Shown here: in pieces, positions 3,313-56,568 of the stretch
How positions within the stretch are numbered: position 1 is the first letter of the stretch
How the letters are laid out: each line of letters begins with the position of its first letter
NCBI GenBank assembly: GCA_021463645.1
Contig: JAJTYI010000009.1
Location: forward strand, 29,343-93,342
From: a bacterium
GTDB taxonomy: Bacteria > Patescibacteriota > Dojkabacteria > B142 > OLB20
Length of the DNA: 64,000 nt
Reading direction: 5' to 3'
Made by a program: the position numbers and the translations under genes
The notes under the pieces: generated by a model
Seen by the model: only the letters and a program-made list of their open reading frames with translations
Database searches by the model: none
Told to the model about the DNA's origin: nothing

Positions 3313-5070
3313 ATGAAAATCTTAAGAAAATTTTACAGTTACGTTTGGAAATTTAAGTATTATTTTGTCACAGCGACAGTTTTGAATATTTTCATGGCAA
3401 TTTTAAGTAATATATTGCCTCTCTTATTCCGTGATGTAGTTAATTTTGCCCTTGAAGGAGAAACAGAATTCTTATTCAGATCCATACTACTGATATCTTC
3501 AATCGTTTTGGTCACATATTTGGGTGACACATTTACGATGTACATCTCCGACTTTGCTTTATTTGGAGCAGCAGCGAAATTAAAGAAAGACGTACTCAGA
3601 CACTTGCATGATTTAGATTTTAGCTATCATGCAAATAAATCTTCAGGCAAATTAATTAGCATTTTCAAAAGGGGTGAGGGTGCATTTTTTTCTTTTTATG
3701 ATGAACTGAATATTTGGATGTCTCGTGTAGTTTTCGACTTCGTCATTATAGTAGCTATCTACTCTACAATCTATCCTAAATTAATAATCATCACTGTAAT
3801 TGCATTCTTTGTAAATGCAACAGTCATGTATTTCACAGTAAAGAACAATGTAAACAAAAGAAAGGTTTTAAATAAGACTGAGGATGATGTTAATTCTCAG
3901 ATTGTTGACAATATGATTGCATTTGACTCTGTGAAATATTTCGCAAATGAGAAATACGAGCAAAAACGATTTTCTAAAGTTGTTGATAAGTGGTATCAAG
4001 ACTGTATCAACTACGCAAAGACTTTCAGAGTGATTGATTTGAGTAATGGTGGAATCAGTAACTTTGCATTTTTAGTGACTATAATTGTAGCAATAGTTGA
4101 TTTAGTAAATGGTGTTATAAACGCAGGAGACTTTATACTTGCAATATCCTTTGCTAATACGTTCTATCCCAAAATCAAATACCTAGTATTTCAATTCCGT
4201 GAACTCGCAAAAAATTATGAGGATTTAAAATCATATATGAGCATATTGGACGAAGAGGTTACTGTGGTTGATAAAGTTAAGCGAATATCATCAGAAAACC
4301 AAAAATTACTCGATGATAAAGATGGCAAGTTGGAAATCGAATTTAGAAATCTTACTTTCGGATATGATATACAAAGACCAATTTTTAATAATTTAAACCT
4401 CACAATCCGTGAAGGAGAATCTGTCGCACTTGTAGGACATTCTGGTGTCGGGAAGACTACTATTGTGAAATTATTAATGCGCTTTTTCGACCCAACTTCT
4501 GGAGATATTTTCATTAATGGAGTAAACATCAGGGAAATCCCTAAACAATCACTTCGTAAATTAATTGCTATGGTTCCACAGGAAGCTTCCTTATTTAATA
4601 ACACTATTGGTTATAACATTGGTTATGGGAATGCTGGGAAATATTCGGCAGACCAGTTAGATCAAGCTTCCCGAAAAGCTTATCTAACGAGTTTCATTAC
4701 GCAGCTTCCACGCAAATACGAAACTGAAATTGGAGAAAGAGGAGTCAAACTCTCAGGTGGTCAAAAACAGAGATTAGCTATTGCTCGGGCTTTCATAAAA
4801 GAAGCTCCAATAATCATCCTCGATGAAGCAACGAGTAACTTGGATTCAATTTCTGAACGTGAAATCCAGCAAGCATTCTGGGAACTTTCGGCAGATAAAA
4901 CCACAATAGTCATCGCACACAGACTCTCGACAATTGAGAAAGTTGATAGAATCCTCGTTTTCGATAAAGGCCAAATCGTTGAAGAAGGGAATCACAGAGA
5001 TCTAATACATCGCGAAAATGGCATCTACAAATACCTCTGGGAACTTCAATCCAGTGGGGCGATTAGTTAA
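3313..5070 (+). CDS. ABC exporter, fused permease and ATPase (MsbA/MdlB-like type I exporter)
   Basis: 585 aa. N-terminal 6-TM-like region, Walker A 'GHSGVGKTT', signature 'LSGGQKQRLAIARA', Walker B 'IIILDEATSNLD'. Starts 2 nt after the previous gene. Confidence 0.9.
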   Translation: MKILRKFYSYVWKFKYYFVTATVLNIFMAILSNILPLLFRDVVNFALEGETEFLFRSILLISSIVLVTYLGDTFTMYISDFALFGAAAKLKKDVLRHLHDLDFSYHANKSSGKLISIFKRGEGAFFSFYDELNIWMSRVVFDFVIIVAIYSTIYPKLIIITVIAFFVNATVMYFTVKNNVNKRKVLNKTEDDVNSQIVDNMIAFDSVKYFANEKYEQKRFSKVVDKWYQDCINYAKTFRVIDLSNGGISNFAFLVTIIVAIVDLVNGVINAGDFILAISFANTFYPKIKYLVFQFRELAKNYEDLKSYMSILDEEVTVVDKVKRISSENQKLLDDKDGKLEIEFRNLTFGYDIQRPIFNNLNLTIREGESVALVGHSGVGKTTIVKLLMRFFDPTSGDIFINGVNIREIPKQSLRKLIAMVPQEASLFNNTIGYNIGYGNAGKYSADQLDQASRKAYLTSFITQLPRKYETEIGERGVKLSGGQKQRLAIARAFIKEAPIIILDEATSNLDSISEREIQQAFWELSADKTTIVIAHRLSTIEKVDRILVFDKGQIVEEGNHRDLIHRENGIYKYLWELQSSGAIS

Positions 5071-5100
5071 GTACCCCTCATCGCTGTCTCTCCGCGGCTT

Positions 5101-5152
5101 GACCGCGGAGTCTCGTATATCCTCTCAAACGTACTAATCAGGAAAGCTCAGG
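5101..5152 (+). repeat. 52-nt perfect direct repeat, copy 1
   Basis: 'gaccgcggagtctcgtatatcctctcaaacgtactaatcaggaaagctcagg' is identical to 5237-5288. Confidence 0.95.
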
Positions 5153-5236
5153 TTCCCGTGGTCAAGCCACGGGAAGACTAAGAAGAACGAACCTCGCGCT
5201 GTTTCTCCGTGCTTGCCTGCCCTGCCGAAAGGGAGG

Positions 5237-5288
5237 GACCGCGGAGTCTCGTATATCCTCTCAAACGTACTAATCAGGAAAGCTCAGG
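5237..5288 (+). repeat. 52-nt perfect direct repeat, copy 2
   Basis: Identical to 5101-5152. Confidence 0.95.
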
Positions 5289-5315
5289 ATTCCGTGCTTA
5301 AAGCACGGAATGACT

Positions 5316-6254
5316 TCAGAAATCAAAATCAATCCACTTCTGAATCGCCTTCACCATCTCAACATCAGTACTCCCATGGTGACCTGCTAGATGAACTATG
5401 TCTAAAATGGAATGGGGAAGTGCCTTATGCAATTTCCAGGCAGAAATCATCGGTGTGACAATGTCGTACCGACCATTTACAATAACCATTGGAATATCTT
5501 TTAATTTCTGAATATTTTCATCCTTTAATATTTCTTCATCTTCTAGGAAATAATTGTTAACTGAATAATGAAGCATTATTGATGATGAAACAATTTCTTT
5601 CTCGATATCAATTTCATTCTCTTCATCTTCTTCGGGGAACAAACTAAGAATTGAACCCTCCCACTTCCCAAAGTTTGTAAATAACTTTTCTTTTAGTTCT
5701 TTATTATTACCTTTTGCGATTTCATATAAATATTCTAAATAATCTTCTCTTTTATCACTTGGGATAATATTCATCAAATCTTCAAATTTATCAGGAAATA
5801 GTTGATTAGCACCGTACTTAAAGAGCCAATCATTTTCTGTTTCTGATGCGAAGAAAACTCCTCTTAATAATAATTTCTTTACAGTTTCAGGATGTTTCTG
5901 AGCATACAGCAAAGCTAAGGTTGACCCCCAACTCGGTCCGTGAATGTACCATTTTTCGATATTTAAGTGTCTTCTGAGTTTCTCAATATCCTCAACTGTA
6001 TCTGACGTGGTATTTTCATCAAGTAAACCGGCAGGCTGTGACTTACCACAACCTCTTTGATCGAATAAAACTACTCTGAATCGTTTCAAATCATACGGAT
6101 TGACATGTTTAGGTTTTGAGTTTGACCCTGGTCCACCATGGATTTGAAGTACAACCTCACCCTCTGGATTGCCGTATTGGTGGTAATAAAGTTTGTGTTT
6201 TTCGCTTACTTGGAGGTAGCCGTCGTTATAGGGAGTTGGTTCTTCCTCTTTCAT
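5316..6254 (-). CDS. pip: Proline iminopeptidase (alpha/beta hydrolase, S33 family)
   Basis: 312 aa. 'HGGPGS' oxyanion motif, nucleophile elbow 'GPSWGSTLAL', and C-terminal 'AGH' typical of prolyl aminopeptidases. Confidence 0.85.
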   Translation of the reverse strand: MKEEEPTPYNDGYLQVSEKHKLYYHQYGNPEGEVVLQIHGGPGSNSKPKHVNPYDLKRFRVVLFDQRGCGKSQPAGLLDENTTSDTVEDIEKLRRHLNIEKWYIHGPSWGSTLALLYAQKHPETVKKLLLRGVFFASETENDWLFKYGANQLFPDKFEDLMNIIPSDKREDYLEYLYEIAKGNNKELKEKLFTNFGKWEGSILSLFPEEDEENEIDIEKEIVSSSIMLHYSVNNYFLEDEEILKDENIQKLKDIPMVIVNGRYDIVTPMISAWKLHKALPHSILDIVHLAGHHGSTDVEMVKAIQKWIDFDF

Positions 6255-6273
6255 TTTTAATTTTGTAGTTAAA

Positions 6274-6474
6274 TTATTCGTCTAAATCGCCTACAACTGC
6301 ATCATTATAGGCTTCCTGAGGATTCTTATTCCACTTTTCCTCAGGTATATCATTTATTCTATTTTCGAATCTCCATTGATCGGGGGAAATTTCTATTGGT
6401 TGGTCCTCTCCAGATATAATATTCTTTTCTTCCCATTCTTTATTTGGGTTTACATCCCCTTCTTTGCCTGCCAT
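6274..6474 (-). CDS. Small acidic hypothetical protein
   Basis: 66-aa ORF, 19 nt upstream of pip on the same strand. No motif recognised, so it may not be coding. Confidence 0.4.
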   Translation of the reverse strand: MAGKEGDVNPNKEWEEKNIISGEDQPIEISPDQWRFENRINDIPEEKWNKNPQEAYNDAVVGDLDE

Positions 6475-6608
6475 ATTTTGAAATAATAATAAATAAACTT
6501 AAGAAAATTTTAGCAATAAATTATTAATTTATACAGTTTTCTGAATACTTTAGCTTTATTCCGTATTTCAAGTTCATCTGAAAAATGAGACTTACTTATA
6601 AATTTCTC

Positions 6609-6658
6609 TTGACATTTTTGTATACCCTGTATACCATATTAAATATATTAAGTATACC
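6609..6658 (+). promoter_or_regulatory. Putative lexA promoter with three GTATACC repeats (candidate operator)
   Basis: TTGACA at 6609-6614. Possible -10 at 6632-6637 (TACCAT, 17-nt spacer). GTATACC at 6620-6626, 6629-6635 and 6652-6658. The ATG is at 6662, so the leader is very short. Confidence 0.35.
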
Positions 6659-6661
6659 AAT

Positions 6662-7324
6662 ATGACACATACTATAACCACAAGACAAAACGAAATATTA
6701 TCCCTTATCAAGTCCTTCATTATCGAAACTGGCCAAGCACCCACGCTTACAGAGATGGAGCGAGCACTTGGTATCACTCGTCGAGCAGTTGTTAAGCACC
6801 TACAAGCACTCGAGAAGAAGGGATTAATAAATCGATCTTCATCATCTCGAGGCATCGCTCTCCGAGAGACACAGTCAGGACAGATGTTTATAGATGTAAA
6901 TATCCTCGGTTATGCAAATGCTGGAGCACCTATGGTGATAGCCCAGGAACAACAACTCGGATATCTACGAATAAACCGCAGTCTACTTCCAGTTACAAAA
7001 GACGTCTTCGCCCTTATGATAAAAGGAGACTCCATGAATATGCGCGAAGTCGATGGAGGCACACTCGAGGATGGTAAGTATGCAGTCATTGCCAAGAATG
7101 TCGATATAAAAAACGGAGATGTTGTACTAGCCATTATTGATAACTGCGCAACTATCAAAACCATAAAAAAAGACCGAAACATTGTGGTTCTTTACCCAGA
7201 GTCTACCAACACACGACACAAACCATTCTACCTAGATGCATCTTCTCTAGGAGATACAGATATCTACGGCAAAGTCGTAGCAGTTTTAGATAACCCTAAC
7301 TTCTCAACGAAACATGCAGAATAA
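6662..7324 (+). CDS. lexA: LexA repressor (S24 peptidase)
   Basis: 220 aa. N-terminal winged-HTH ('LTEMERALGITRRAVVKHLQALEKKGLI'), Ala-Gly cleavage site in 'NAGAPM', catalytic Ser in 'KGDSMN', Lys in 'TIKTIKK'. Confidence 0.9.
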   Translation: MTHTITTRQNEILSLIKSFIIETGQAPTLTEMERALGITRRAVVKHLQALEKKGLINRSSSSRGIALRETQSGQMFIDVNILGYANAGAPMVIAQEQQLGYLRINRSLLPVTKDVFALMIKGDSMNMREVDGGTLEDGKYAVIAKNVDIKNGDVVLAIIDNCATIKTIKKDRNIVVLYPESTNTRHKPFYLDASSLGDTDIYGKVVAVLDNPNFSTKHAE

Positions 7325-7784
7325 TATCTACGCACCCGAAACAACATTTTTAGACTATCAGGAGGACTTTCGTTCGACTAGATTGTACGAAGAACAGAAA
7401 AACGAATCTCGAAAGGATCTTGAACTTTCTACAGTAGCTTTTTCGACTCCTATTCGAAACGAATCTGACCTGAAACTCGACATTCAGTCATACCTTATAA
7501 AAAAGCCTTCTAGCACATTTTTTATGAAAGCAGGGGATAATGACCTTCGAAAATGGGGAATTCACAAGGGAGATTTACTTGTGGTGGATCGTTCGTTACC
7601 CATTACAGATAAATCAATAGTTGTCGTGAGCCTAGATGGTGAGTTATTAATCAAAAAGATATTAATATCGAAACACATCACCTACCTAACACCTTGGAAC
7701 ACAAGATCCACACTTTATCGTATCACTCCGGAGAATGACTTCGAGATATGGGGAGTAGTTGCCTACAATATTCATGAACTCTGA
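7314..7784 (+). CDS. umuD: UmuD-like S24-fold protein with the catalytic Ser replaced by Asn
   Basis: 156 aa. Aligns by eye to E. coli UmuD: 'FMKAGDNDLRKWGIHKGDLLVVD' against '[23 protein letters not shown]'. The Lys in 'LLIKKI' is retained. Overlaps lexA by 11 nt. Confidence 0.75.
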   Translation: MQNNIYAPETTFLDYQEDFRSTRLYEEQKNESRKDLELSTVAFSTPIRNESDLKLDIQSYLIKKPSSTFFMKAGDNDLRKWGIHKGDLLVVDRSLPITDKSIVVVSLDGELLIKKILISKHITYLTPWNTRSTLYRITPENDFEIWGVVAYNIHEL

Positions 7785-9073
7785 TGTCCTCGGATATCTA
7801 TGGTATCGTCGATTGCAATAATTTCTACGTTTCTTGCGAGAGAGTTTTTGATCCGACACTCCGCAACCGTCCCACTGCAGTCTTATCAAATAACGACGGA
7901 TGTGTCATCGCCAGATCAAACGAATTGAAAGCAATGGGAGTCCCTATGGGCGCACCTTTGTTTGAATGGAAAGATCGATTTATCGAGAACAACGTCGCTG
8001 TGCGTTCCGCAAATTTCACACTTTATCAAGATATGTCCGAGAGAGTATTTCGTTCACTCCACGAGTTTTGTCAGGAAATTGAAATATATTCGATTGATGA
8101 AGCGTTTTTGCGTATACCTATAACATCACCTGAAAGGATACTTCGAAACTCCATAGAGATGAAAGAAACGATTTATCGCTGGACAGGAATCCCGATATCT
8201 ATTGGAATAGCAAATACCAAAACATTAGCCAAACTCGCCAACAAAATCGCGAAGAAATTCATCGAAAATGATGGGGTTTATCAGATAGATGACATTACAG
8301 ACTATAGACATAATAAGTATTTAGAACATCTCGACATTGATGACATTTGGGGAATAGGTGGACGCATTGCTCGAAGACTCAAAATCTTCGATATTGCGGA
8401 CATCCCAAGTCTCCTACAAGCTGATAGACATCTACTTCGACAAGAATATGGAGTTATGTTGGAGCGAACTTGGCTCGAACTCCATAGTATCCGATGTTAC
8501 CCAATCAACCCACATCGTAGCTCGAAAAAAGGCATACTCTGTAGCCGTACGTTCAAGAAAGCATACACCGAATACAATCAAGTTGCTCAGGCAGTTGCGA
8601 GATTTACAGATAGTGCATCCAGAAGCCTAAGGGCACAGGGTTCGGTAACGTCTAGAATTTGGGTTTTCCTTACAACCGATAGATTTACTCCAGAAGGGCG
8701 TTACTCTAATTCATATCTGATAAAGCTCGAAACACCTTCTGATTACACACCACTGTTAACGAAGAGTGCACTAAATGGATTAAAGCAAATTTTCCGTTCA
8801 GGGTATAAATACAAAAGGGCAGGGGTGTTTTTAGAGAATTTCTACAATAAAGGCGAATACCAACAAAATATTTTTACTACATCCAATGCTCAGGAAGAAA
8901 TAAAACAAACCATTTTAATGAGGTCCTTTGATAAACTCAACTCTATCTGGGGCAAAGGTACAGTGAAGTTTGCAAATCAGATGGTTTTCTTGAACCCAAT
9001 CAAAGAACAAGCACTTCGTTCACCAAGATATACTACAAGATGGGAGGAGATACCGGTTATAAGGAGTCGATGA
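7784..9073 (+). CDS. umuC: Y-family DNA polymerase, UmuC type (Pol V catalytic subunit)
   Basis: 429 aa. 'DCNNFYVSCERVFDP' and 'VLSNNDGCVIARS' match the UmuC N-terminus. Its ATG overlaps the umuD TGA (TGATG). Confidence 0.9.
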   Translation: MSSDIYGIVDCNNFYVSCERVFDPTLRNRPTAVLSNNDGCVIARSNELKAMGVPMGAPLFEWKDRFIENNVAVRSANFTLYQDMSERVFRSLHEFCQEIEIYSIDEAFLRIPITSPERILRNSIEMKETIYRWTGIPISIGIANTKTLAKLANKIAKKFIENDGVYQIDDITDYRHNKYLEHLDIDDIWGIGGRIARRLKIFDIADIPSLLQADRHLLRQEYGVMLERTWLELHSIRCYPINPHRSSKKGILCSRTFKKAYTEYNQVAQAVARFTDSASRSLRAQGSVTSRIWVFLTTDRFTPEGRYSNSYLIKLETPSDYTPLLTKSALNGLKQIFRSGYKYKRAGVFLENFYNKGEYQQNIFTTSNAQEEIKQTILMRSFDKLNSIWGKGTVKFANQMVFLNPIKEQALRSPRYTTRWEEIPVIRSR

Positions 9074-9076
9074 AAT

Positions 9077-12000
9077 TTACCTCAAGAATGAGAACACCCT
9101 AGACAAACTACTGATTACTAGTTCTATTGCGCTATTAGACTCTTTCGGAGTGATTGCTACATAGTCTAATGAGTATGTCGTGTTCTCTGCATCGTCAGTC
9201 GAGACTGCTCTCAAATGATAGACCTTTCCAGGTGCGAGCCCGGAGATTACGATGGTATGATCAAGTGTAAAATTGCTATCTAACTGTGATCTCTGAGGAT
9301 AGCTACTTCCAGTTCCTTCTCCATATTCAACCTGTGAAGTTGTAGGTTCGTCTGTCGTCCAAGTCACGATAAACTGAGAGCTGTCTGTGACATTACCTTT
9401 GCCAGCTTCAATCTGTACATTTGAGATTGCAGGTGGTCTGGTGTCAGTAGCAGTTGTTATTCTCTGTGCTGTCGATGTTGCTTGATTTCCTAATTTATCA
9501 GAGCCCTTAACTAATAACTCGTAAACCGTATTTGGTAATAATCCACGGATAATCATTTGATGTTCACCACTCATTAAGTCTAGATTAACTTCTTCTCTGA
9601 TTAACTCAACATTACCTTCAGGGAAGAGACTTACCACGGATGTGACTTCTGTATTAGACTCCCAAGACACTAAAACAGTTGGTTGTGCAGCATTCTTCAC
9701 TTGTTGAATTCGTACATTCGATAATTTTGGTTGTGGCAATGTAGTGAAATCAAGAACTGTGCCTTCATAAACATAACCTTCATCATCTTCAGTATCAACT
9801 CTGAAATAATATTTACTGCCTTCACTCAACCCATCGAGAAGAGTAGTGTATCTAGACTCAAGTGGACTTGTAGCGATTTCTTTACTCGAACCAAATCCTA
9901 CCGACGTTCCGTAGAGGAAATTCACCTTTGAAGACCCTGTAGTTGTAAAATTAATAACTGCTGTACTAATTCCCACACTACTTACAACAACATCCTTAAC
10001 ACTTGGGGGTGGGGCAGTAGTAAAGGTGTATTCATCCGACAGTCCGAGATTACCGTCTTCGTCAGTCCATTTAGCTTGGAAGTAGTACGTAGTGCCCGGT
10101 TCTAGGTTTGTAAGTATTAAATCATGATCAATTCTTTGTTCAGAGTTTCCAACTTCTTCCTTGAAGTAGTCATTACTTGCAAGTCCATAAGAAATCCTTG
10201 AGTCTGAATCACGATCAGTTATCCAACTAATCCTAGCATTTCTCGTCGAAACACTACTTACAACTGGTGCTGATTCGAGGATTGCGGGACTTGTGAATTT
10301 ACCGTCAGGGAAGTTACTTCCTGTAGACGATACAGCAGAGCAGTTGTTTGTCGAATCGCATGCTCTCACACAGTAATAATGATCTTTTTGTTGAAGATTT
10401 GTATCGACATATGATCCACCTGCCGTTTCCCCAACTTTTGCGAATAGTGAGAAATTTTCACTACAGTTTGCATTTTCGGCAAACGATCTATAGATAAAAT
10501 ATTTTGCAACTCCAGCCCCTAAATCCTCAGGTTCATCCCATGATACGGTAAGTCTCCAATTCTTAGTTGTTTTAACAGATATGTCTGCAACATCTAAATT
10601 TCTAGGAACACCAGGGGCTGATGTGTTGGCGTAGAATTTGATAGAAGCATAATCTCCATAATTAATATTTGATGCTTCATCACGACTCACCACATAGAAG
10701 GTATTTTCACCAGGTTGTGTTGCAAATGCATCAGGATTTAATGAGTTACTACTTGTGAAGATACAGGTTCCAGATGTAGGAAGAGTATTAACTGTATAAC
10801 AATACGATAGGTTGGACTCCGCGCCTTGGTAGATTTCTGGGGTCAACCATGTGAATGAGAACTCATTTTTATCGTTAGTTACTGGAGTAACCGACAGATC
10901 TCGCGGTGCTGACGGTGCAGTCGAGTTGTATTTCAATATTGCCGAAATAGCGGAAGCAGATGTGTTACATGCATAGTCAAGAGTTCTTAGGTAAAATGGT
11001 GTTTCTCCAGAAGGTAGATTATCAAAATCCGCATCAAGCGCGTAAGTATTTGTAGTCAAAACATCATTACAATCTTGATCTCCGGTGTGTCCACCTCCAT
11101 ACCAAGTTCCATTGGTACCAAGTTTGTACTGATATCCTTTCACTAGTGAATGCGCATCTTGAGCCATATTTGCTCCATCGGATGGCCATGAGATAACAAA
11201 ACTATCAAATGATCTCTGATAACTTGCAGGAGCAAATAAACCTCTAGGATTTGTTGGTGGAGTATTATCAAACTTGAAGCCAAATATCTCGGGTTCTAAA
11301 TCATATACATTTCCAGTGTTATCTACTGCTCTAATGATTAAGTAATACGAATCAGTGGTTGATTGCAACCATGTGTTTCCTCTCAGATTTGTATTGGCAA
11401 AATCGATAGAATTTGTAGTCACAACAAAAGGACAAGTAGTATTTGCTGTTGAACCAGGGCTAGATCCTAGAAGCCCCTTATCGTTTGTTGGATTTCCTGC
11501 AATGTCTGGCCCAAGATATAAACAATAACCTCGAAGACCTGATCCATCGACATCATCGACACCTGCAACCCAGCTGAAATACGGCGCTTGAGAATTTGTG
11601 TAGTTATTTTCAGCGATAGTATCGCCTGATACCGTTCTTTTCAAAGTAGTTTCAGTAGCGTTAACCTCTGGTGGTATTGCATCTTGTACATAGTTGATTT
11701 GAGCACCATTAAATACTGGGGTTGTGTTTTGATTTGGTGAATTTAGAGTTGCTTTCATTTGCAAGTAACGTTTTGGAGGACTCGATATGGATAAATTCGG
11801 TGTGCTACCTGTAACTGGAGCATAATCAGACCACACGAGATTGTCTTCAGAAGTTCTAGTTTGGTAATTAATTGTGTTTCCATTTAACAATTCTGTGATT
11901 AGGAGGTTCGGGTTATTTCCCCATTGGCCTGCGTTCCCTAGGTCGAGAATGTCTGTTTCGTAGTCTCCAGTGGTTCTGTACTTATTATCATCCTCTGAAC

Positions 12001-15000
12001 CAGATTGATGGTTGGCAAGTCCAGAGTTGTAGAGTGACAATACAGCAGTATCGCTTAGAGGTGCATTAAAAATTCTTAGGTCTGAGATTGATCCATTAAG
12101 ATGCCCTACGGGCCAATTCCAAACTTGTCCTATTTTTTGGACCAGAGTTGAATTGTTTGCAGTAGTCGAGGAAAAATCTAGTGCACTTGAATTTTTTAAA
12201 ATACCATTTTCATATATAGCAGCACCAGATGCTCCAAAAGTGAATACAAAGTGCCTCCAACCTTTTCCTGTGCCAGAAAGTGTATACGATAAACCCCTGG
12301 CAGTCGCTGCAGTATCGACCCATTTAGCTGCAGTAAATTGTCCAGAAGGATTGAATGTCATGTCGTATCTACCCCAACCAGTACCCATTATTCCAAAAGA
12401 GTCTGTCCATGTTGTTTTCGTTGACAATTCATTCCAACTCCAGTTTTCTGGTCGAATCCAAACGCTCCATGTTCCCTCCTGCATTGGGAAGTCGGAACCA
12501 GCATCTGGGTCAGGAAAATATATTTCAGTTGAAGCCCTAGTAGATACAGAATTGTGAGCTTCGCCTGACCATGTATAATTACCTCCTAGACTTCCATCGG
12601 CATAGCTCGTTACTAGCAATGCTTTTGCCTCTAACTGCACGCCATCTACGTAAATCGTTTTCCCTGCCAACGCTTGAACACCGTAGGAAAGTGATGCATC
12701 AGCTGTAGCAGCTGAATATATCAATCGCCACCAGCCTCCTCCTGCATCTGTGTAACTCGTGGGAGTTACAACATTACCGCCAAAAATAAGTTTAGCTACT
12801 GTTGCTGAAACTGTTCCTCCAATATTTCCTGTGGTGCCATCGTATACATATGCAGAAAAAGTATGTGTTGAAGTAGCGTTAGGATCTATGGCGATTGTGT
12901 ATTCATCCGGCATTGTTCCGGCATTTACTAACTTTACGCTTTTACTTCCAAATTTGTAGTATGGGCTAGTGGTGTTCTCGGTGGGTGTCAGCGCAGTGAA
13001 GTTGGAAATGGTACCATCATATTGATTCAACGCTCCATGGCTACCAAAATTAATAGGGGTTGGAATGGATGAAAAACTTACAACACCTGTATTCGTTGCA
13101 ACTTGAATTCCATTAATCAATAAGTTTAAACTACCTCCACTTGTATAGTTGACTTCTATATCGTAAGTAGTTCCTGCATTTAATGTAGGGTTTGACCAGT
13201 CCGCAACTACAGTTGTTCCGTTAAATTGTCCCGCGACTCTCAATAAGGTAGATGATTCCTTTCTCAGATACAAGTAATTCGAACCAGCACCATAGGTTGC
13301 AAATATTGTTGGATTTGCTGAACCAAACTTGTCGGCATCGGCAAAATTGTGCCTAGGAGTATATTTAAACTTAATCACACCTCTATCAGCACTAAGTTCA
13401 GTTGTCGTTTGAGTCAAAGTATCTGCTCCGTCTACTCGTAATCCGGTAGTTTCACTAGAATTAGCTTCTGAAGCCGATGTTACTGTAAGTGAGACGTTTG
13501 TTAACTCAAATGAATATAGATCATCCACATAAGACGTACCCGTACCACCAACTCTAACCCATTTATTTGTCACACCGACTTTCCTAAAAACCAACGGGTA
13601 ATGTTTATAAAGGTCACCAGAAGCACCAATTGTTAAACTCGCAGTACCCCCATCATTAGCTGTAGCATTTTCCCCATATGAAAGTTGTTGACTTCCTGCT
13701 GTTTCCCTCATCCACGCACCAAGAGAATAAAAATTATTAATTGTTCCTCCATGATCATATAAGATAGTGAGTTGGCTATTAAATCTGACTCCAGAAGTTC
13801 CAGAATGAACAACTGTGGTTTCCTGGGATGAATCCCCAGCATTAGAGTATTCAGTAGTAGTATGCCCTGATGGCAACCATGGATCACCCGAACCTGTCTC
13901 AAATGAAGGATTGCTAATTTTATTAGTAAGCATTTCTACCTGATGCCAATAACACGTACCTAAACTGGCTGTATTTACTAACTTTATTCTCAAAGTTGTC
14001 ATCCCAGTAGGTGCTTCTCCTGTGAAAATGAAAGTATTTGGTGCTGTTCTGACTGATGTTGTCGTTCCTGTTAAGCTACCGATCTCGGCACCTCCAGTCT
14101 GGTTATACAGAATAATTTTTGGGACACATGTTCCATCACTATGCGCTAGTCCTCTTACTACCCAATCATTGCCTGCTGCTACTGTTTTTTCATAATAGAT
14201 ACCCTCATCAGCTGCGTCACTTGTTATTTTATATCCTCCCGAAAAAATCTTTTCATTCGAAGCTAGCGCAGTGACCGAACTTGGCGTTCCTTCGCTTACC
14301 CATCCATCAGTCGTATACGTTCCGTTAAGCATAAATCCACCAGTATTTGTCGTGCTCGTGTAAAGGAGATTCGAAGAGTGAGGATGACTCCAAGCATTTC
14401 CATTTCCAGTTGCCAATTCACCAACAGTTCCATTAGTAGGTAGTGCGAAAACAACATCCCAACTTCCAGTAATCAATGTTGGATCTTTGCCCGTTCCCGA
14501 GTTGTATATTAAATTAAGTTCATCACCATTCCCTACATCGATTCCATTGGTTCCATCAAAAAGTGGACGACGGTAAATTGTGAGGCCCTCGATGAGTGCT
14601 TCAGCTGGATTCTTATAAACAACTTCTGGTGATCTATCATCATTTCCTATTTCAAATAAAGACTGGCTACTTGGAGAACCAGAAATTACCGTATTAGCAA
14701 ATACATGTGTATCATTTATACTTACTGAAAAATAATTTGCACCACTTAAAGTCGCATATCGACTCCACCTAAATACAACATTGTAAGTTGTTCCTGCCGT
14801 CCAACTCGATACACTCGTACAAACTATATTTGACCAACCTTGGTCAAAACATAGGTTACCATCAGCTGCTTTATATATGCCATTCACCGAATAAGCATTT
14901 GTATTGTATATTATATGTAATTTCCCATCGTTTCCATTCCACTCCGGTGTTATCCAAAAGGCTATTGAGCCTTGATTTTGATCAAAAGTCTGTTTAAATG

Positions 15001-16759
15001 TACCAGCTGAATCTATATTTGAGCCAGTACTTGCTTGTATCGAATCCTGGTTAGTCGTATTATATTGCCCCTGTATGAGAACGCCAGCAGTAAACGGACC
15101 TGCACTATTCCTCTTCGCCATTTTCGCTGTAAACGTATCAAGCGTATTGTCGTAGTTGAAGTAGTTCAGTCCCCAGTTCGTGCTGTAAGTACCATGCTCG
15201 AAACTTGGATTTGTGATCAGATTAGTTGTACCTTCTTCGATAAATACTCCTTCATGTCCTGCGTAACTCTGACCCTTAACTTGTCCTGAACTTGTCGAAG
15301 AATCTATCCCGGCCACACCACTGACATATTTAGCTCCGGTGATTGTTCCATGATTTCCATTCCCACTCGCATCGATAGCTTTTCCAGAATTTCTGGGATC
15401 ATCGCCATTTTCATCCATATGGTAAACAAGTACCACATTACTATCTATCAGATCGTTCGCCGAATCTGATTCACTATATAATCTGGATACTTCTGTTTGT
15501 GTTAAATAGTTTTTCGAAATAAATACTTCATCTATCAGACCATTGTAACCTCTAGTACTCCACTGTAAATCATTAATTCTAAAAGTAGCACTTGCATCTG
15601 TAAATGTTCTATTAGTCGTTTGTGTCGTCTTAAGCACTCCATCTAAATATATCTTCTGTTCATTAGCTTTCAAAGTAAGTACTAAATGATGCCAATCAGT
15701 ATAGTTTTGTAAATTGCCAGCACTGATATGACCCCCTCCTGCTCCACTAAACCAAAAATTCATACTTCCCGAGGCATACCACTCCATATATCCAAAGTCT
15801 AGTCTCCATAATTGTGCCGATGTTGGATGCATAGGTTTCCCTTTAAACCATATAGATATACTCAACTCGTCTCCGTGGCTGAAGGTCGTACTATTCACAT
15901 AGTCGTCACTACCGTCAAAACTCAGTGAGCTCCCTCCTGAATACCTCAATGCACCCCCCTGTGCGCTCGGTATCTCCCCATCGATACATGTTGTGGTCCC
16001 ATTAAACGGACAGACCATGGTTGCTTCAGCGTCGCCGATATTGTAACCATTATCTCCAAAACCAGGGTTAGTTGCTCCAGGATTTTTATAGTAAAGATAG
16101 TAATTCCCACTTGATGCTCCTGCTGTCATCTCTGCTTGAATTGGGAATGTTACTACAGTCGCAGTAGAATCAGAACAATCCGTGGCACCACTTGCTTTGT
16201 AATAGCTTCTCGCAAGTTCAGTATGATTACCAACTCCAGTAGAATAAATAATTCTCAAGTCGTCGCAATCATTTTGAAGGTTTGAAGCGTCGAATAGTTC
16301 TTTTGTGTTTAAGGTTACTTGTATTGGTGTATTCGCAGGCAATGTAACTGCTGATAGATTTTTAACTGTTAGCTGTTTCTTGAGGTTCCAGCCCATATCA
16401 TACCAATTATCATCTTTACCCAAAGACACAGCAGAAGATGAAATCACAACATCAGTTCCACTACCAGCAGTTAATTCACTATCACCGCCTTCGACTAATG
16501 TATAGCTGGTTTCATCGAGTGCTCTCAGAATAGGAACAAGTTCAGTAACCATAGCATACGTTCCCAAGACAAAACCCAAACCCAGCATCATGACTGTAAA
16601 AGTATTCAACTGCCACCTAGCTATAGTAATCTTCTTAAAGAATAAAAATTTGGTGATTTGCTTAAGTTTTTTGCGCACGAAATTCTTTCGTACACGAAAT
16701 ATACGAGAATAGTCTCGATGCATTCTCTGCAAGGTTTTATTGGAACGCGAAACGCGCAT
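9077..16759 (-). CDS. Giant membrane-anchored surface protein (DUF2341-like, LamG/ConA-like lectin, CBM-like and FN3-like modules)
   Basis: Uninterrupted 2560-aa ORF. Basic N-terminus plus one TM (FTVMMLGLGFVLGTYAMV). LamG_3-type signatures ('LSFDGSDDYVNS', 'DASGNGNHGTITGAKYVSG'). CBM4/9-like 'NPSFEHG' and 'NPSFETG'. About 870 C-terminal aa of FN3-like modules. Confidence 0.9.
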   Translation of the reverse strand: MRVSRSNKTLQRMHRDYSRIFRVRKNFVRKKLKQITKFLFFKKITIARWQLNTFTVMMLGLGFVLGTYAMVTELVPILRALDETSYTLVEGGDSELTAGSGTDVVISSSAVSLGKDDNWYDMGWNLKKQLTVKNLSAVTLPANTPIQVTLNTKELFDASNLQNDCDDLRIIYSTGVGNHTELARSYYKASGATDCSDSTATVVTFPIQAEMTAGASSGNYYLYYKNPGATNPGFGDNGYNIGDAEATMVCPFNGTTTCIDGEIPSAQGGALRYSGGSSLSFDGSDDYVNSTTFSHGDELSISIWFKGKPMHPTSAQLWRLDFGYMEWYASGSMNFWFSGAGGGHISAGNLQNYTDWHHLVLTLKANEQKIYLDGVLKTTQTTNRTFTDASATFRINDLQWSTRGYNGLIDEVFISKNYLTQTEVSRLYSESDSANDLIDSNVVLVYHMDENGDDPRNSGKAIDASGNGNHGTITGAKYVSGVAGIDSSTSSGQVKGQSYAGHEGVFIEEGTTNLITNPSFEHGTYSTNWGLNYFNYDNTLDTFTAKMAKRNSAGPFTAGVLIQGQYNTTNQDSIQASTGSNIDSAGTFKQTFDQNQGSIAFWITPEWNGNDGKLHIIYNTNAYSVNGIYKAADGNLCFDQGWSNIVCTSVSSWTAGTTYNVVFRWSRYATLSGANYFSVSINDTHVFANTVISGSPSSQSLFEIGNDDRSPEVVYKNPAEALIEGLTIYRRPLFDGTNGIDVGNGDELNLIYNSGTGKDPTLITGSWDVVFALPTNGTVGELATGNGNAWSHPHSSNLLYTSTTNTGGFMLNGTYTTDGWVSEGTPSSVTALASNEKIFSGGYKITSDAADEGIYYEKTVAAGNDWVVRGLAHSDGTCVPKIILYNQTGGAEIGSLTGTTTSVRTAPNTFIFTGEAPTGMTTLRIKLVNTASLGTCYWHQVEMLTNKISNPSFETGSGDPWLPSGHTTTEYSNAGDSSQETTVVHSGTSGVRFNSQLTILYDHGGTINNFYSLGAWMRETAGSQQLSYGENATANDGGTASLTIGASGDLYKHYPLVFRKVGVTNKWVRVGGTGTSYVDDLYSFELTNVSLTVTSASEANSSETTGLRVDGADTLTQTTTELSADRGVIKFKYTPRHNFADADKFGSANPTIFATYGAGSNYLYLRKESSTLLRVAGQFNGTTVVADWSNPTLNAGTTYDIEVNYTSGGSLNLLINGIQVATNTGVVSFSSIPTPINFGSHGALNQYDGTISNFTALTPTENTTSPYYKFGSKSVKLVNAGTMPDEYTIAIDPNATSTHTFSAYVYDGTTGNIGGTVSATVAKLIFGGNVVTPTSYTDAGGGWWRLIYSAATADASLSYGVQALAGKTIYVDGVQLEAKALLVTSYADGSLGGNYTWSGEAHNSVSTRASTEIYFPDPDAGSDFPMQEGTWSVWIRPENWSWNELSTKTTWTDSFGIMGTGWGRYDMTFNPSGQFTAAKWVDTAATARGLSYTLSGTGKGWRHFVFTFGASGAAIYENGILKNSSALDFSSTTANNSTLVQKIGQVWNWPVGHLNGSISDLRIFNAPLSDTAVLSLYNSGLANHQSGSEDDNKYRTTGDYETDILDLGNAGQWGNNPNLLITELLNGNTINYQTRTSEDNLVWSDYAPVTGSTPNLSISSPPKRYLQMKATLNSPNQNTTPVFNGAQINYVQDAIPPEVNATETTLKRTVSGDTIAENNYTNSQAPYFSWVAGVDDVDGSGLRGYCLYLGPDIAGNPTNDKGLLGSSPGSTANTTCPFVVTTNSIDFANTNLRGNTWLQSTTDSYYLIIRAVDNTGNVYDLEPEIFGFKFDNTPPTNPRGLFAPASYQRSFDSFVISWPSDGANMAQDAHSLVKGYQYKLGTNGTWYGGGHTGDQDCNDVLTTNTYALDADFDNLPSGETPFYLRTLDYACNTSASAISAILKYNSTAPSAPRDLSVTPVTNDKNEFSFTWLTPEIYQGAESNLSYCYTVNTLPTSGTCIFTSSNSLNPDAFATQPGENTFYVVSRDEASNINYGDYASIKFYANTSAPGVPRNLDVADISVKTTKNWRLTVSWDEPEDLGAGVAKYFIYRSFAENANCSENFSLFAKVGETAGGSYVDTNLQQKDHYYCVRACDSTNNCSAVSSTGSNFPDGKFTSPAILESAPVVSSVSTRNARISWITDRDSDSRISYGLASNDYFKEEVGNSEQRIDHDLILTNLEPGTTYYFQAKWTDEDGNLGLSDEYTFTTAPPPSVKDVVVSSVGISTAVINFTTTGSSKVNFLYGTSVGFGSSKEIATSPLESRYTTLLDGLSEGSKYYFRVDTEDDEGYVYEGTVLDFTTLPQPKLSNVRIQQVKNAAQPTVLVSWESNTEVTSVVSLFPEGNVELIREEVNLDLMSGEHQMIIRGLLPNTVYELLVKGSDKLGNQATSTAQRITTATDTRPPAISNVQIEAGKGNVTDSSQFIVTWTTDEPTTSQVEYGEGTGSSYPQRSQLDSNFTLDHTIVISGLAPGKVYHLRAVSTDDAENTTYSLDYVAITPKESNSAIELVISSLSRVFSFLR

Positions 16760-16826
16760 TGTTAGTGAAAATGGTTTATATAATTTAACTTTTTTTGGAG
16801 ATGTTTACAAATTTTTTGTAACGAAA

Positions 16827-18353
16827 TTATTCGTAACGGAGTGCATTTAGAGCAGATATTTTCGTAGCTCTTCTAGCGGGAAATAATCCAGTCAAATAAC
16901 CTACCATTACAGACAATGCTATTACTAAGAACACGAATGTGAAAGGTATACTACTAACACTTATAACATTACCACCTTTACTTATAGAATATGAAGTTAA
17001 TATCAAACTGATTAATTTCCCGCCTAAGTAACCTAACAACAACCCCGACACTCCTCCAAGAAAACCCATTAATAAAGATTCGATAAGAAAGAGTAACCTA
17101 ACTTCAGCAGATTTCATTCCTATTGTCTTCATCAATCCGATTTCTTTAGTCCTCTCAAGAAGTGAAACAGTTAAAGTATTAAACATTCCAAGAGAAGCAA
17201 TAGCTAAACCAAAAGCTCCAATTAATCCTAATCCTATCCTCACGCTACTAAACAATTGTTCAATTTCTGCAACTGTATCTTGAACCGATGTGGTTAAATA
17301 TCCCTGCGCTTCAACTTGTTCTCGAATTCTTTGAACATTATTTTGATCATCGGTAATTATGCGAACTTCGGTGAAATTTACTACACCAAGTGTACGAAGG
17401 TTGAAAAATGGCGTGTATATTGCTGGTTCTGAGTTATCAGAGAGTACCCCTACAATAGTGAAATTTTCTGGCAGTGACACGACTTTTATTCCTTCTCTAT
17501 TCAAGTGTTGACTAGTCACAGTAAATGCAAGACTTACGTTTTCTCCTACAGCGTCATCAAAAGGTAATCCAATAATCTCAATTGCAGACCTGTTCATCAC
17601 GATTTCTTTTAAAGCGGTATTTGGTAAATTTATTTCATCAACGTCAATTTTCTCTCCGTCTGTATTTTCTGTATCAAGTTCGATAAACTCCTCACCTTCG
17701 GAAACCTCTACTGGATTTTCCAGTAAGTTTGCACTTTCTGTGTTCTTTGTTTCATTCTCTTCAGTTAAATTCTCAGCTTGCTTAACTTCGTAGTAAGTTT
17801 CATTACTTTCGAATAGTTTTCCATAAACAGGTTGTATTGCAGACTCTTTGAGATAGTCAGTAGTCACTCCATAGACAGGAATCGCCGCGTTTGATTGTTT
17901 GTAGGACATATCACCCACAATTGCAACCACGGGCAAGGTCTTTTGGACATTTGGAATCTTTTTCAGGTCGGCTAGAACAGTATCATTAAGTCGTAACTTA
18001 CTTCCAGCTTGAGTTGAGACTTGCACTTGTTTCAACTCTTCAAGTCTAGTTGCCTCTGAAATAACCAAATCCTGCATCCCATAGCCAATAGAAACTAAAA
18101 ATACAATCGAAGCGATACCTATCGACATACCAATTATCGTAACCAGAGTCCTAGTTCTACGTACCATTAAATTGACTCCGGCGATATAGAGCAAATCGAT
18201 TAATGAAACTTTAATCCTATATTTCCTAAACCTCTGAATATTGATAACAACTAATATAATCACTATTAAAATGATAGCGATCTCTATAAAGACAGAGCTG
18301 AAAAGTGTCTCAAATAATGGTTCAAATTTTACTCTTAATTCATTTAAATTCAT
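16827..18353 (-). CDS. ABC transporter permease, MacB/FtsX family, with a large extracytoplasmic domain
   Basis: 508 aa. 'RRTRTLVTIIGMSIGIASIVF' is a MacB-type TM1. A roughly 290-aa loop follows, then a C-terminal FtsX domain ('LLERTKEIGLMKTIGMKSAEV'). There is an extra N-terminal helix. Confidence 0.85.
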   Translation of the reverse strand: MNLNELRVKFEPLFETLFSSVFIEIAIILIVIILVVINIQRFRKYRIKVSLIDLLYIAGVNLMVRRTRTLVTIIGMSIGIASIVFLVSIGYGMQDLVISEATRLEELKQVQVSTQAGSKLRLNDTVLADLKKIPNVQKTLPVVAIVGDMSYKQSNAAIPVYGVTTDYLKESAIQPVYGKLFESNETYYEVKQAENLTEENETKNTESANLLENPVEVSEGEEFIELDTENTDGEKIDVDEINLPNTALKEIVMNRSAIEIIGLPFDDAVGENVSLAFTVTSQHLNREGIKVVSLPENFTIVGVLSDNSEPAIYTPFFNLRTLGVVNFTEVRIITDDQNNVQRIREQVEAQGYLTTSVQDTVAEIEQLFSSVRIGLGLIGAFGLAIASLGMFNTLTVSLLERTKEIGLMKTIGMKSAEVRLLFLIESLLMGFLGGVSGLLLGYLGGKLISLILTSYSISKGGNVISVSSIPFTFVFLVIALSVMVGYLTGLFPARRATKISALNALRYE

Positions 18354-19153
18354 TTACTTGCTTTTTCTAGTTTAAATATTGATTTCCCTTTGTTTAGAAC
18401 ATCATTAATCAATTCTTTCGTTTCATCCTGCAAATAAATTCCAGCTAAATTTCCATCTTTAATATAGAAAGTCCTATCTGCGTATGATAAATACTGTAAA
18501 TCATGCGTTACCACAATCACAGTTCTCCCAATTATGTTCAATTCTTTAAGACCTTCAACTAATCTCTTGCTCGAATCTATATCAAGATTACCTGTAGGCT
18601 CGTCAGCGATTAGTATCTCAGGCTCTGTAATTAAAGCACGTATCAATGATATCTTTTGTTGTTGACCTGATGATAACTCGGTTGGCTTGTATTTAGCCCA
18701 CTTATCCATAGCATAACTCTTTAACTTTTCTTCGGCAATTTTCATAGCTTCTCTATGAGGTGTACCCAATAAATTCAAAGGCAAGGCAACATTATGAGCT
18801 ACATTCATTGCTTTTACCCAAATTGGTTGTTGATACATAATTCCAATTTTTTCCAATCTTGTCATTGACCTTTCGTCCTCGTTTTCTGCATAAAGATCCT
18901 TGTTAAATAGTTCAACTCTTCCTTTGGTGGGGTTTTCTAGTCCAATCATTGAATGGAGAAGGGTAGATTTACCTGAGCCAGATGGTCCAAATATGATGAT
19001 AAATTCACCTCTTTTAATTTCCAAATCTATTCCATGCAGAACTCGGGTTTCACCAACACCAGTATAGAAGTATTTATGCAATCCATACGTTGCAATAATA
19101 TTCTCCTCTTTTTTCCTAGGTGTTTTAGGTATAGAAACAGAAATTGCCATCAA
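18350..19153 (-). CDS. ABC transporter ATP-binding protein (MacB/LolD-like)
   Basis: 267 aa. Walker A 'GPSGSGKST', signature 'LSSGQQQKISL', Walker B 'ILIADEPTGNLD'. Overlaps the permease gene by 4 nt. Confidence 0.9.
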   Translation of the reverse strand: MMAISVSIPKTPRKKEENIIATYGLHKYFYTGVGETRVLHGIDLEIKRGEFIIIFGPSGSGKSTLLHSMIGLENPTKGRVELFNKDLYAENEDERSMTRLEKIGIMYQQPIWVKAMNVAHNVALPLNLLGTPHREAMKIAEEKLKSYAMDKWAKYKPTELSSGQQQKISLIRALITEPEILIADEPTGNLDIDSSKRLVEGLKELNIIGRTVIVVTHDLQYLSYADRTFYIKDGNLAGIYLQDETKELINDVLNKGKSIFKLEKASK

Positions 19154-19283
19154 ACAATATTTAATATTTCTATTATGAACTTAAATGAGTTTTTTATCAA
19201 AATTCTATTTCACTCTCTCTTTTACATAAATCTATACTAACTTTCCCCATTTCGCTATATAATCAATTCTGTTTTACTCAATA

Positions 19284-28655: not shown

Positions 28656-29948
28656 TTGCACTTAACTAAAATGCTTTCATTTAGGAGAGAAAAAACCGTT
28701 AACAAACATCTTGATTTCCCACTTTTTTCAACAGTTAGTTTACTTACAGCTTTTGGCTCTGTGATGGTATACAGTGGAAGTGTTATCGTCGCCACGAAAC
28801 AAGGCTTTGAACCACAGCATTATTTCATAAGACAGATTATTTGGATTGCGATTGGACTCTTTACCGGATATGTAGCATATAGAATAAATTACAGAATATT
28901 ACCCAAACTAGCTCCATTTCTTTTAGGAGCCTCTATCATTTTATTAATATCAGTACTTATCATTAACATAGGTAGTCCAATCAAACGATGGATTGACCTA
29001 GGATTCTTCGACATACAACCTTCCGAAATTGCCAAACTTGTTTTCTTGATTTATCTATCTTCCTGGCTTGCTAGTAGAAAAGAATCTAGCCGTATCACAA
29101 AAGAAAATATTAAAAATCATTTTATCAAAGACCTTTTGCCGTTTTTATTATTGTTATCGGTTGTTTCATTTCTGATTCTTTTAGAACCTGACCTTGATAC
29201 TACTATCATCCTAGGTGCTACTAGCGTTCTTGTATACTTTATTGCTGGAAATGATTTGTTACACTTGCTTGGTTCAGGTTCGATTTTCATGCTTATCATG
29301 ACATTGTTTGGTATTGCAACTCAAACTGCTTCGTATCGACTTGAAAGATTCATTAACTGGAAGGACTTTTGGGTCAACTCTACAATTCAAGACCCTTATG
29401 GTGCGGGTTATCAATTAAAACAAATTTTAGTTGCAGTGTCATCTGGAGGACTTATGGGGGTAGGATTTGGAGAATCGCGTCAAAAATTTCACTATCTTGG
29501 AGACACAGCCTTTAGTGATACAATCTTCGCAATTTTTGCTGAAGAATTCGGTTTTCTTGGTTCCGTAATACTAATATCTGGCTTCTTTTTTTTACTTTAT
29601 CGCGGATTTGTAATTGCGAAAAGGGCACCAGATAAACTAGGCTTCTTACTTGCAACATCCATCACAATATGGATAACGATACAAGCCACTCTTCACATTG
29701 CTTCTAATGTCGCGCTCATTCCAATAAATGGAAACACATTACCATTTATAAGTTATGGTGGAAGTTCTACGATAGTTAATTTAACAGCCATTGGACTGTT
29801 ATTAAATATAAGTCGATCTAATAAAGATGGGAAGAAAAGAGTAGTCAGCCATAGAGTAAAAGAAGTAAGGAGTAAACGAAGAGGTAAGAAATCTTCAAAA
29901 CTTTCGCAAATCAACCCGAAAAAATGGATAACAAACGTATTCGATTAA
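28656..29948 (+). CDS. ftsW: SEDS-family peptidoglycan glycosyltransferase (FtsW-like)
   Basis: 430 aa, about 10 TM. 'QPSEIAKL' and 'LPFISYGGSS'. Context includes murG. The track start is TTG, and the ATG at 28671 is an alternative. Confidence 0.85.
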   Translation: MHLTKMLSFRREKTVNKHLDFPLFSTVSLLTAFGSVMVYSGSVIVATKQGFEPQHYFIRQIIWIAIGLFTGYVAYRINYRILPKLAPFLLGASIILLISVLIINIGSPIKRWIDLGFFDIQPSEIAKLVFLIYLSSWLASRKESSRITKENIKNHFIKDLLPFLLLLSVVSFLILLEPDLDTTIILGATSVLVYFIAGNDLLHLLGSGSIFMLIMTLFGIATQTASYRLERFINWKDFWVNSTIQDPYGAGYQLKQILVAVSSGGLMGVGFGESRQKFHYLGDTAFSDTIFAIFAEEFGFLGSVILISGFFFLLYRGFVIAKRAPDKLGFLLATSITIWITIQATLHIASNVALIPINGNTLPFISYGGSSTIVNLTAIGLLLNISRSNKDGKKRVVSHRVKEVRSKRRGKKSSKLSQINPKKWITNVFD

Positions 29949-56544: not shown

Positions 56545-56568
56545 GATACAAACCAGTATAACATATAC

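Follow-up and report, generated by a model that had tools for sequence, protein, structure and literature searches.

A type VII ABC transporter pair linked to giant surface proteins with a constant C-terminus in Patescibacteria

The ultra-small Patescibacteria account for a large share of bacterial diversity. Most are presumed to live fixed to other cells, and little is understood of how the surface that attaches them is built. A locus on contig JAJTYI010000009.1 of a Dojkabacteria genome, of which we analysed a stretch of 64,000 nucleotides (nt; hereafter, the window), bears on this question. Here, genes for an ATP-binding cassette (ABC) ATPase and for an FtsX/MacB-type permease lie next to a gene for a surface protein of 2560 amino acids (aa), referred to below as the giant. 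Is the ABC pair functionally tied to the giant, and if so, through which part of it? The initial annotation of this triad proposed that the pair controls extension, release or activation of the giant, with the latter anchored in the membrane by its N-terminus and its membrane-proximal region touching an acidic loop of the permease. The genes concerned are as follows:

18350-19153, minus strand: ATPase open reading frame (ORF), 267 aa (ORF list)
18350..19152, minus strand: ABC ATPase gene, 266 aa from the ATG at 19150, LolD/MacB/FtsE-like, catalytic motifs intact
16827..18353, minus strand: type VII ABC permease, 508 aa, with an extra N-terminal helix, four transmembrane helices and a MacB-type extracytoplasmic domain
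9077..16759, minus strand: giant surface protein gene, 2560 aa (ORF list, Pfam)

All three ORFs are on the minus strand in the ORF list of the window; those of the ATPase and the permease overlap by 4 nt, and 67 nt (16760-16826) separate the permease from the giant. Coordinates, strand, overlap and gap given by the initial annotation were reproduced exactly, and only the ATPase start was corrected: the gene most likely begins at the ATG at 19150 (MAISVS...), which gives 266 aa, because this N-terminus is kept in relatives (locus L001) and the gene is called in the same way in locus L171.

Whether the three genes belong together was examined in both directions. Scanning an alignment of the permease over one genome per species gave 80 loci, in which ORFs were called and searched with the three window proteins, and the 63 with 3 kb or more of sequence on the upstream side of the ABC pair were counted. 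The permease homologues are all Patescibacteria-type proteins of 500-770 aa. A giant homologue lies upstream of the ABC pair in 61 of the 63 loci (directly adjacent on the same strand in 51, split off by ORF-calling gaps or 1-3 small genes in eight, and divergent in two), and the two loci without it are second copies in genomes represented elsewhere in the set. In the reverse test, an alignment of the last 311 aa of the giant was scanned over metagenomes, and 76 of the resulting 80 loci encode the ATPase or the permease at most three ORFs downstream of the giant tail; among the other four, one has no room and three have an uninformative flank of at most 1.8 kb. Additional loci that were inspected individually agree with this linkage. 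The gap between the giant and the ABC genes has a median of 3 nt and is no longer than 25 nt in 48 of 58 cases, some of which may come out too short under our simple longest-ORF calling, and the stop and start codons often overlap. Moreover, where two to four giants stand in tandem, all of them retain the tail and only one ABC pair accompanies the set, and neither the other ABC pairs at the same loci nor the FtsEX pair of the window show any linkage to giants. By this measure of gene order, the triad is one copy of a three-gene module found across Patescibacteria (the candidate phyla radiation, CPR) and not a set of chance neighbours, and the functional coupling of the ABC pair with the giant is strongly supported. 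The conservation of the triad in related genomes, proposed as a check in the initial annotation, was thus borne out both ways, and the occurrence of the pair and the giant apart from one another, which would have spoken against the proposal, is clearly not the pattern found.

The gene order of the window itself deserves separate consideration, as do the signals from which its genes may be expressed:

19172..19200, minus strand: promoter-like site TTGATA-17-CATAAT upstream of the ATPase gene (consensus match only, 10/12)
16782..16810, minus strand: promoter-like element TTGTAA-17-TAAATT in the permease-giant gap (homology to L001 and L171)

The usual order is giant-ATPase-permease, as in L001 (77% identical) and L169 (58% identical), and the order of the window is ATPase-permease-giant. 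The latter is real and recent and no misassembly, because a strain whose permease is 99% identical shows it too, in three independent assemblies; the permease-giant gap of that strain is 181 nt versus 67 nt in the window. A consensus scan reported neither a promoter nor a terminator inside the 67-nt gap, its best-scoring promoter-like site being the one upstream of the ATPase gene. The element in the gap scores 8/12, under the scan threshold. Nevertheless, about 50 nt 5′ of the giant are homologous among the window, the strain with the 99%-identical permease and L001, and the element is also kept in L171. In L001, the stretch upstream of the giant comes after a clear terminator hairpin, so that it must hold the promoter of the operon (TTGTCA-17-TAAATT), and the homology of the gap to this region implies that the giant moved along with its own expression signals. 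Judging by these sequences, the ABC pair seems to have gained a separate promoter-like site and the window giant may be transcribed on its own; co-transcription across the gap is possible, since there is no terminator in it, but not required. An independent promoter or terminator between 16760 and 16826, with uncorrelated expression, had been named in the initial annotation as an observation that would undo the proposed link. A promoter-like element does lie there, yet the link stands, since ancestrally the genes are packed closely into one operon.

The element that all linked giants have in common lies at the C-terminus:

9080..11692, minus strand: constant C-terminal module, residues about 1690-2560, an fn3/PAP_N-type array that defines the family (homologue coverage)
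9083..9130, minus strand: terminal helix, residues 2544-2559, AIELVISSLSRVFSFL, after the ITPK motif and Arg-ended (conserved in all 65 aligned giants)

The C-terminus of the giant carries fn3/Pur_ac_phosph_N repeats (Pfam), and from about residue 1690 to the end it is covered by 91-100% of 64 homologues. Conservation climbs toward the C-terminus, with a mean top-residue frequency of 0.65-0.77 over the last 400 aa, and culminates in a tail with the near-invariant consensus ...VYHLRA-S-D-AGN...TVTITPKA-x-NAL-LVI-NL---FGFL. The window tail, ...YVAITPKESNSAIELVISSLSRVFSFLR, aligns with all 65 others and fits the module tail TITPK-x(4-7)-AL-x-LV-x-x-L-x(3)-F-x-F. A TP[KS] motif is present in 146 of 154 tails, followed by 19-32 residues (median 25), and 121 of the 146 have Lys or Arg within the last six residues; the best 17-residue hydropathy of the tails has a median of 1.1 and is 1.6 or more in 10 tails only. 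In the predicted structure of the last 311 aa, three fn3 domains modelled at a predicted local distance difference test score (pLDDT) of 90 are followed by the terminal helix, and Foldseek searches with this C-terminal model returned generic tandem fn3 structures only. When a 50%-identity library was searched with a profile of the module, 2,799 cluster representatives matched at E≤1e-30, mostly at the very C-terminus of proteins of 1000-4000 aa. Because the C-terminal ~870 aa and the terminal helix are the invariant element, coupling of the ABC pair with the giant is more likely to run through the C-terminus than through the N-terminus.

The remainder of the giant presents a different picture:

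16520..16759, minus strand: N-terminal export signal, residues 1-80, with a basic n-region carrying a KKITIARWQLN motif, a hydrophobic core at 53-75 and a predicted cleavage between A80 and L81 (family alignment)
15485..15916, minus strand: Laminin_G_3 (concanavalin-like lectin) domain 1, variable head (Pfam)
12041..12496, minus strand: Laminin_G_3 domain 2, variable head (Pfam)

The N-terminal ~1690 aa are not conserved in the family, residues 1-1360 being covered by 0-18% of the 64 homologues. The two Laminin_G_3 domains of the window giant (residues 282-425 and about 1422-1573) fall within this part. The single N-terminal hydrophobic segment (residues 53-75) has counterparts in 49 of 66 giants, and most of the others are cut by contig ends. 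In an alignment-based count over 48 N-termini, the site after the hydrophobic core has Ala at -1 in 43 and Ile, Val, Ala or Leu at -3 in 43, with Pro at -5 in 18; because this alignment column shows a signal-peptidase-I pattern, cleavage is predicted between A80 and L81, and the segment is probably a cleaved signal peptide and not a permanent anchor.

These observations bear directly on the structural part of the initial annotation, according to which the N-terminal transmembrane helix stays as an anchor, the membrane-proximal region touches the acidic loop and the ABC pair thereby controls extension or activation. The giant does possess one N-terminal hydrophobic segment with basic residues before it, part of the family shares the n-region motif K-K-I-T-I-A-R-W-Q-F-N, and a second membrane helix could associate with the extra N-terminal helix of the permease. 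On the other hand, the part of the giant that would have to make the contact is shared by at most 18% of homologues, in 43 of 48 N-termini the Ala(-1)/aliphatic(-3) site comes after the hydrophobic core, and the acidic insert of the permease is clade-specific and disordered, as detailed below. The DUF2341-like region that this arrangement placed next to the membrane was not recovered either, residues 1-300 matching neither DUF2341 (PF10102) nor any other Pfam family even at E≤1. We therefore consider contact through a retained N-terminal anchor very unlikely. The functional tie between the ABC pair and the giant that was first proposed for this locus stands on the two-way linkage; its rationale via the N-terminus and the acidic loop does not.

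In one lineage, the variable part is accompanied by a diversity-generating retroelement. Upstream of the giant homologue in L004 (1-7001) lie a reverse transcriptase gene (325-1434) and an accessory gene, and the template repeat at 17-136 (120 nt) matches a variable repeat at 3492-3611 inside the giant homologue, at about residues 351-391, with mismatches mostly at template adenines. This match marks the head of the giant as a retroelement-diversified ligand-binding region in that lineage, which fits a distal ligand-binding head on a constant base.

What kind of machine, then, is the ABC pair? The ATPase retains all catalytic motifs in its translation (Walker A GPSGSGKST, signature LSSGQQQ, Walker B ILIADEPT and H-loop VTHD), matches the Pfam family ABC_tran at 1.6e-29 and is nearest to the LolD/FtsE/MacB type, being most similar to LolD (Pfam, NCBIfam). 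The permease matches MacB_PCD (PF12704) over residues 69-185 and FtsX (PF02687) over residues 377-500, both above the cut-off, and its best sequence match among solved structures is YtrF of B. subtilis (2.9e-29). An AlphaFold model built with 24 homologues in the alignment (mean pLDDT 77) comprises an N-terminal helix (3-44), an elbow helix, a long transmembrane helix 1 (TM1, 66-102), an extracytoplasmic domain of about 250 aa between TM1 and TM2 (105-355) and three more membrane helices, with long stalk helices at 66-102 and 357-400. Foldseek matched this fold to MacB, LolC/E, YtrF, Spr0695, HrtB and YbbP with a probability of 1.00, E-values from 1e-19 to 6e-23 (5.8e-23 for MacB, about 1e-21 for LolC/E) and a target-normalised TM-score of up to 0.69. 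The motifs, the four-helix FtsX domain with a large extracytoplasmic domain, and the overall fold all fit a type VII (MacB/FtsX-superfamily) ABC system, and the pair is one. Two features set the permease apart:

18240..18305, minus strand: extra hydrophobic N-terminal helix, residues 17-38, before the canonical TM1 (family alignment, AlphaFold model)
17631..17792, minus strand: acidic disordered insert in the extracytoplasmic domain, residues about 188-241, clade-specific (pLDDT, alignment)

The extra helix is seen throughout the family alignment (A1). The insert has a pLDDT below 50 at residues 188-235, where the model predicts disorder, and it is confined to the clade of the window, most relatives having an insert of 130-200 aa in its place. 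The extra helix, the large outside loop and the acidic stretch described in the initial annotation are accordingly all present in the model. An SH3b-like identity suggested by motif impression for the large insert of most homologous permeases was dropped, as Pfam gave no SH3 match in five representatives.

Considering this family membership, the pair might export a small molecule such as a peptide, lipid or glycan precursor in the conventional MacB manner, or act as an immunity pump for it, and be co-regulated with the giant without touching it, for example supplying a modification or protecting the cell during host contact. MacB, HrtBA and YbbAP handle small hydrophobic substrates (PMC5985334, PMC12646458), some databases label the homologues 'ABC-type antimicrobial peptide transport system permease', and the two units may be transcribed separately in the window. 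Co-regulation alone, however, would have to account for a linkage that is two-way, near-universal and tight even among widely diverged lineages, with stop and start codons that often overlap, and that is shared neither by the other ABC pairs at the same loci nor by the FtsEX pair of the window. Likewise, the linked giants all bear the invariant tail, and this is difficult to account for unless the relationship is direct. A pump of this kind is in our view distinctly improbable. We note that, at several loci, the ATPase and permease matches fall on one ORF, as in E. coli MacB (L086, L113, L114, L121, L129, L136 and L163), and that others have one long ORF with a permease match and no separate upstream ATPase ORF (L008, L013, L016, L020 and L034); the long permease-bearing ORFs of these 12 loci measure 736-966 aa.

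Membership in the established systems of this superfamily was tested and rejected case by case. As an FtsEX division system, the triad pair scores below the NCBIfam cut-offs (ATPase, 171.3 versus 264.85; permease, 33.9-46.6 versus 225-255), and a second pair in the window at 56569-58545 consists of an FtsE that passes the equivalog cut-off (271.5 bits) and a full-length FtsX match. This second pair belongs to a minus-strand segment at 55210-58545 that encodes an FtsE of 351 aa, an FtsX of 306 aa and then a 444-aa protein with SMC-like (coiled-coil) similarity, probably the division FtsEX with its partner. Because genuine FtsE and FtsX are encoded there, the triad pair is a second type VII system and not the division machine. 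It does resemble FtsEX with PcsB, EnvC, CwlO or RipC in that an ATPase and an FtsX-domain permease would act on an outside protein and not on a solute, with the partner bound via a helical element. However, the triad permease is 508 aa long with a full MacB-type domain (about 300 aa for an FtsX permease), and its partner is an fn3 array of 1000-4000 aa, in which neither a hydrolase nor a coiled-coil domain was detected, encoded by genes linked almost without exception. With LolCDE, the pair shares the permease fold, an ATPase nearest to LolD and the idea of gripping a membrane anchor and expelling it on ATP binding. It differs in having one permease gene, whose lolCE score of 69.9 is far under the cut-off of 362.45, and a putative anchor that is a C-terminal peptide helix instead of acyl chains, so that membership in the lipoprotein-release system was discarded. 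MacAB-TolC and the Gram-positive MacB-like pumps (Spr0693-0695, YknXYZ, YtrEF) are closest in sequence and fold, but no membrane-fusion (HlyD-type) adaptor gene adjoins the ABC pair among the flanking genes of the window, which excludes a MacAB-TolC-type tripartite pump; moreover, the extra N-terminal helix is foreign to MacB, and an enormous protein is always adjacent.

Beyond this superfamily, type I secretion (LapA/LapBCE, RsaA/RsaDEF) likewise pairs a very large surface protein carrying a conserved, uncleaved C-terminal element with a dedicated adjoining ABC system. LapBCE and RsaDEF, however, are ABC_membrane-type exporters that thread substrates without N-terminal signals from the cytoplasm, whereas the triad combines an FtsX/MacB-type permease with a giant bearing a Sec-type, signal-like N-terminal segment, and an assignment as a type I substrate and exporter was rejected on these grounds. 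Finally, the giant has a tripartite C-terminus (T-P-K, a helix of ~17 residues, then basic residues) at a constant spacing from the stop codon and accompanied by one dedicated partner system. This C-terminus is reminiscent of LPXTG/sortase and PEP-CTERM/exosortase sorting, from which it is set apart by a far less hydrophobic helix, an ABC motor in place of a transpeptidase, giants that are always adjacent instead of scattered, and the lack of any implied cleavage.

Type VII ABC systems act on extracytoplasmic partners or membrane-embedded anchors, as exemplified by FtsEX with EnvC or PcsB, LolCDE, HrtBA and YbbAP (PMC7668044, PMC6355983, PMC5985334, PMC12646458), and MacB can expel the Sec-exported enterotoxin STII in a second step (PMC5985334). 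Against this background, the reading that we favour, and to which we would give an even chance, has the ABC complex hold or handle the anchor at the constant C-terminus, with deployment of the variable head as the outcome. The giant would be exported by Sec and its signal peptide removed, after which the constant C-terminal array would form the stalk nearest the cell, with the ABC complex as its base or handler. The C-terminal end may be lodged in or docked on the permease dimer; the candidate sites are the extracytoplasmic domain and the lateral cleft that lies between the transmembrane helices. The long-stalk mechanotransmission movement typical of type VII systems would then be powered by the binding and hydrolysis of ATP; because FtsEX, LolCDE, HrtBA and YbbAP act on outside partners or anchors, we infer that this movement inserts, holds, moves or ejects the C-terminal anchor, resulting in deployment of the variable head, lectin-like in the window, toward the outside.

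Several points weigh against this scheme. Model confidence for the terminal helix is low (pLDDT about 56-62), and the helix is too polar for a standard membrane anchor, a mean hydropathy of 1.6 being reached by only 10 of 146 tails. Signal cleavage is deduced from an alignment pattern, and the hydrophobic core, at about 22 residues, is long and could be a signal anchor. In the window, the operon is split, with the giant downstream and equipped with its own promoter-like element. Furthermore, a stable complex, a processing step performed once and co-regulation could all underlie the same gene linkage.

Such a one-time step is the core of another explanation, in which the giants are surface-layer or sheath subunits and the ABC pair is an assembly or release factor that, like LolCDE, pulls the C-terminal helix or an uncleaved signal anchor from the outer leaflet once and passes the protein to the wall, with no permanent base. 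With a constant, putatively anchoring module and a variable exposed part, the giants resemble surface-layer proteins. Anchor extraction of the LolCDE type is an established type VII mechanism, the permease fold matches LolC/E, and the weakly hydrophobic tail would be extractable. Nevertheless, the translational-type coupling suggests similar amounts of giant and ABC proteins, and not an abundant lattice with a catalytic factor, and no SLH-like or similar wall-binding domain was detected in the giant by Pfam. We regard this explanation as rather unlikely, although the evidence cannot distinguish a stable dock from a one-time extraction.

Returning to the favoured reading of a handled C-terminal anchor, a bolder extension is that the TPK motif, helix and basic C-terminus constitute a new protein-sorting or anchoring signal served by a type VII ABC motor, and that the module is a phylum-wide, ATP-actuated appendage with which ultra-small episymbiotic bacteria would grip, probe or release host cells, with a constant fn3 stalk rooted in the ABC complex and a fast-evolving head that retroelements diversify in some lineages. 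This extension is speculative and, we think, likelier to fail than to hold by some distance.

Several loci carry additional genes within or beside the module. A protein of 129-138 aa with an N-terminal membrane helix and one PAP_N-like fn3 domain lies between the giant and the ATPase in L074, L079, L151, L153, L155 and L160-L164, the clade with permeases of 846-872 aa, and may be a fourth component. In L089, L092 and L096-L098, the same position is occupied by an ORF of 124-126 aa, which looks like a four-helix bundle by eye in L089 and L092. Genes for a TrbC-like pilin, TrbL, a TraC-like protein, a VirB4-like ATPase and an M23 peptidase are directly downstream of the triad in L004 (9929-15161), L005 and L082; since type IV secretion genes occur downstream at these loci only, they were dismissed as general neighbours of the triad. 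L079 (CP011212.1) is a complete genome with the module that NCBI labels as candidate division TM6 (Dependentiae), not Patescibacteria, so that either the module reaches beyond CPR or the label is outdated; organism labels are unreliable on many database records.

In the window, the triad is flanked by genes for a phosphodiesterase, a NUDIX protein, LexA, UmuD and UmuC. The latter three form an SOS-mutagenesis cassette on the plus strand at 6662-9073 (a LexA-like repressor, a second S24 peptidase resembling UmuD and a UmuC-like Y-family polymerase), which converges on the giant, the two stop codons being 3 nt apart with no terminator detected between them. The flanking genes are wholly different in the 77%-identical relative L001, and G+C content is 0.37-0.41 at 4000-18000 versus ~0.32-0.35 in the remaining window; this segment may have been relocated or acquired, or the shift may be due to the amino-acid composition of the giant. 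Further away, a homologue of Lit-family lipoprotein intramolecular transacylases is encoded at 29924-30574 on the plus strand, between cell-wall genes of the FtsW/RodA and MurG types.

A search of the literature, incomplete in coverage and hence no proof of absence, found no description of the triad or the module. The module appears to be absent from Southlakia, a genetically tractable Saccharibacterium, whose proteome annotation has no Pur_ac_phosph_N or Laminin_G_3 proteins (PMC10633639). SEML1_0890, an essential fn3 protein considered as a possible counterpart, was rejected, as it has 195 aa and no ABC pair among its listed neighbours SEML1_0886-0892 (PMC10633639). Type VII ABC systems with an outside partner are already known; what seems new is the class of partner, its invariant tail and the linkage throughout the phylum.

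The module occurs in at least several hundred species-level genomes and thousands of protein clusters, and would be a leading candidate for a central component of the machinery with which Patescibacteria contact their hosts. The hypothesis is directly testable, since what is proposed as the determinant is a C-terminal helix that is short and invariant. If true, it would extend the type VII mechanotransmission family, known so far to work with activators of wall hydrolases, chaperones of lipoproteins and adaptors of efflux, by a new class of partner.

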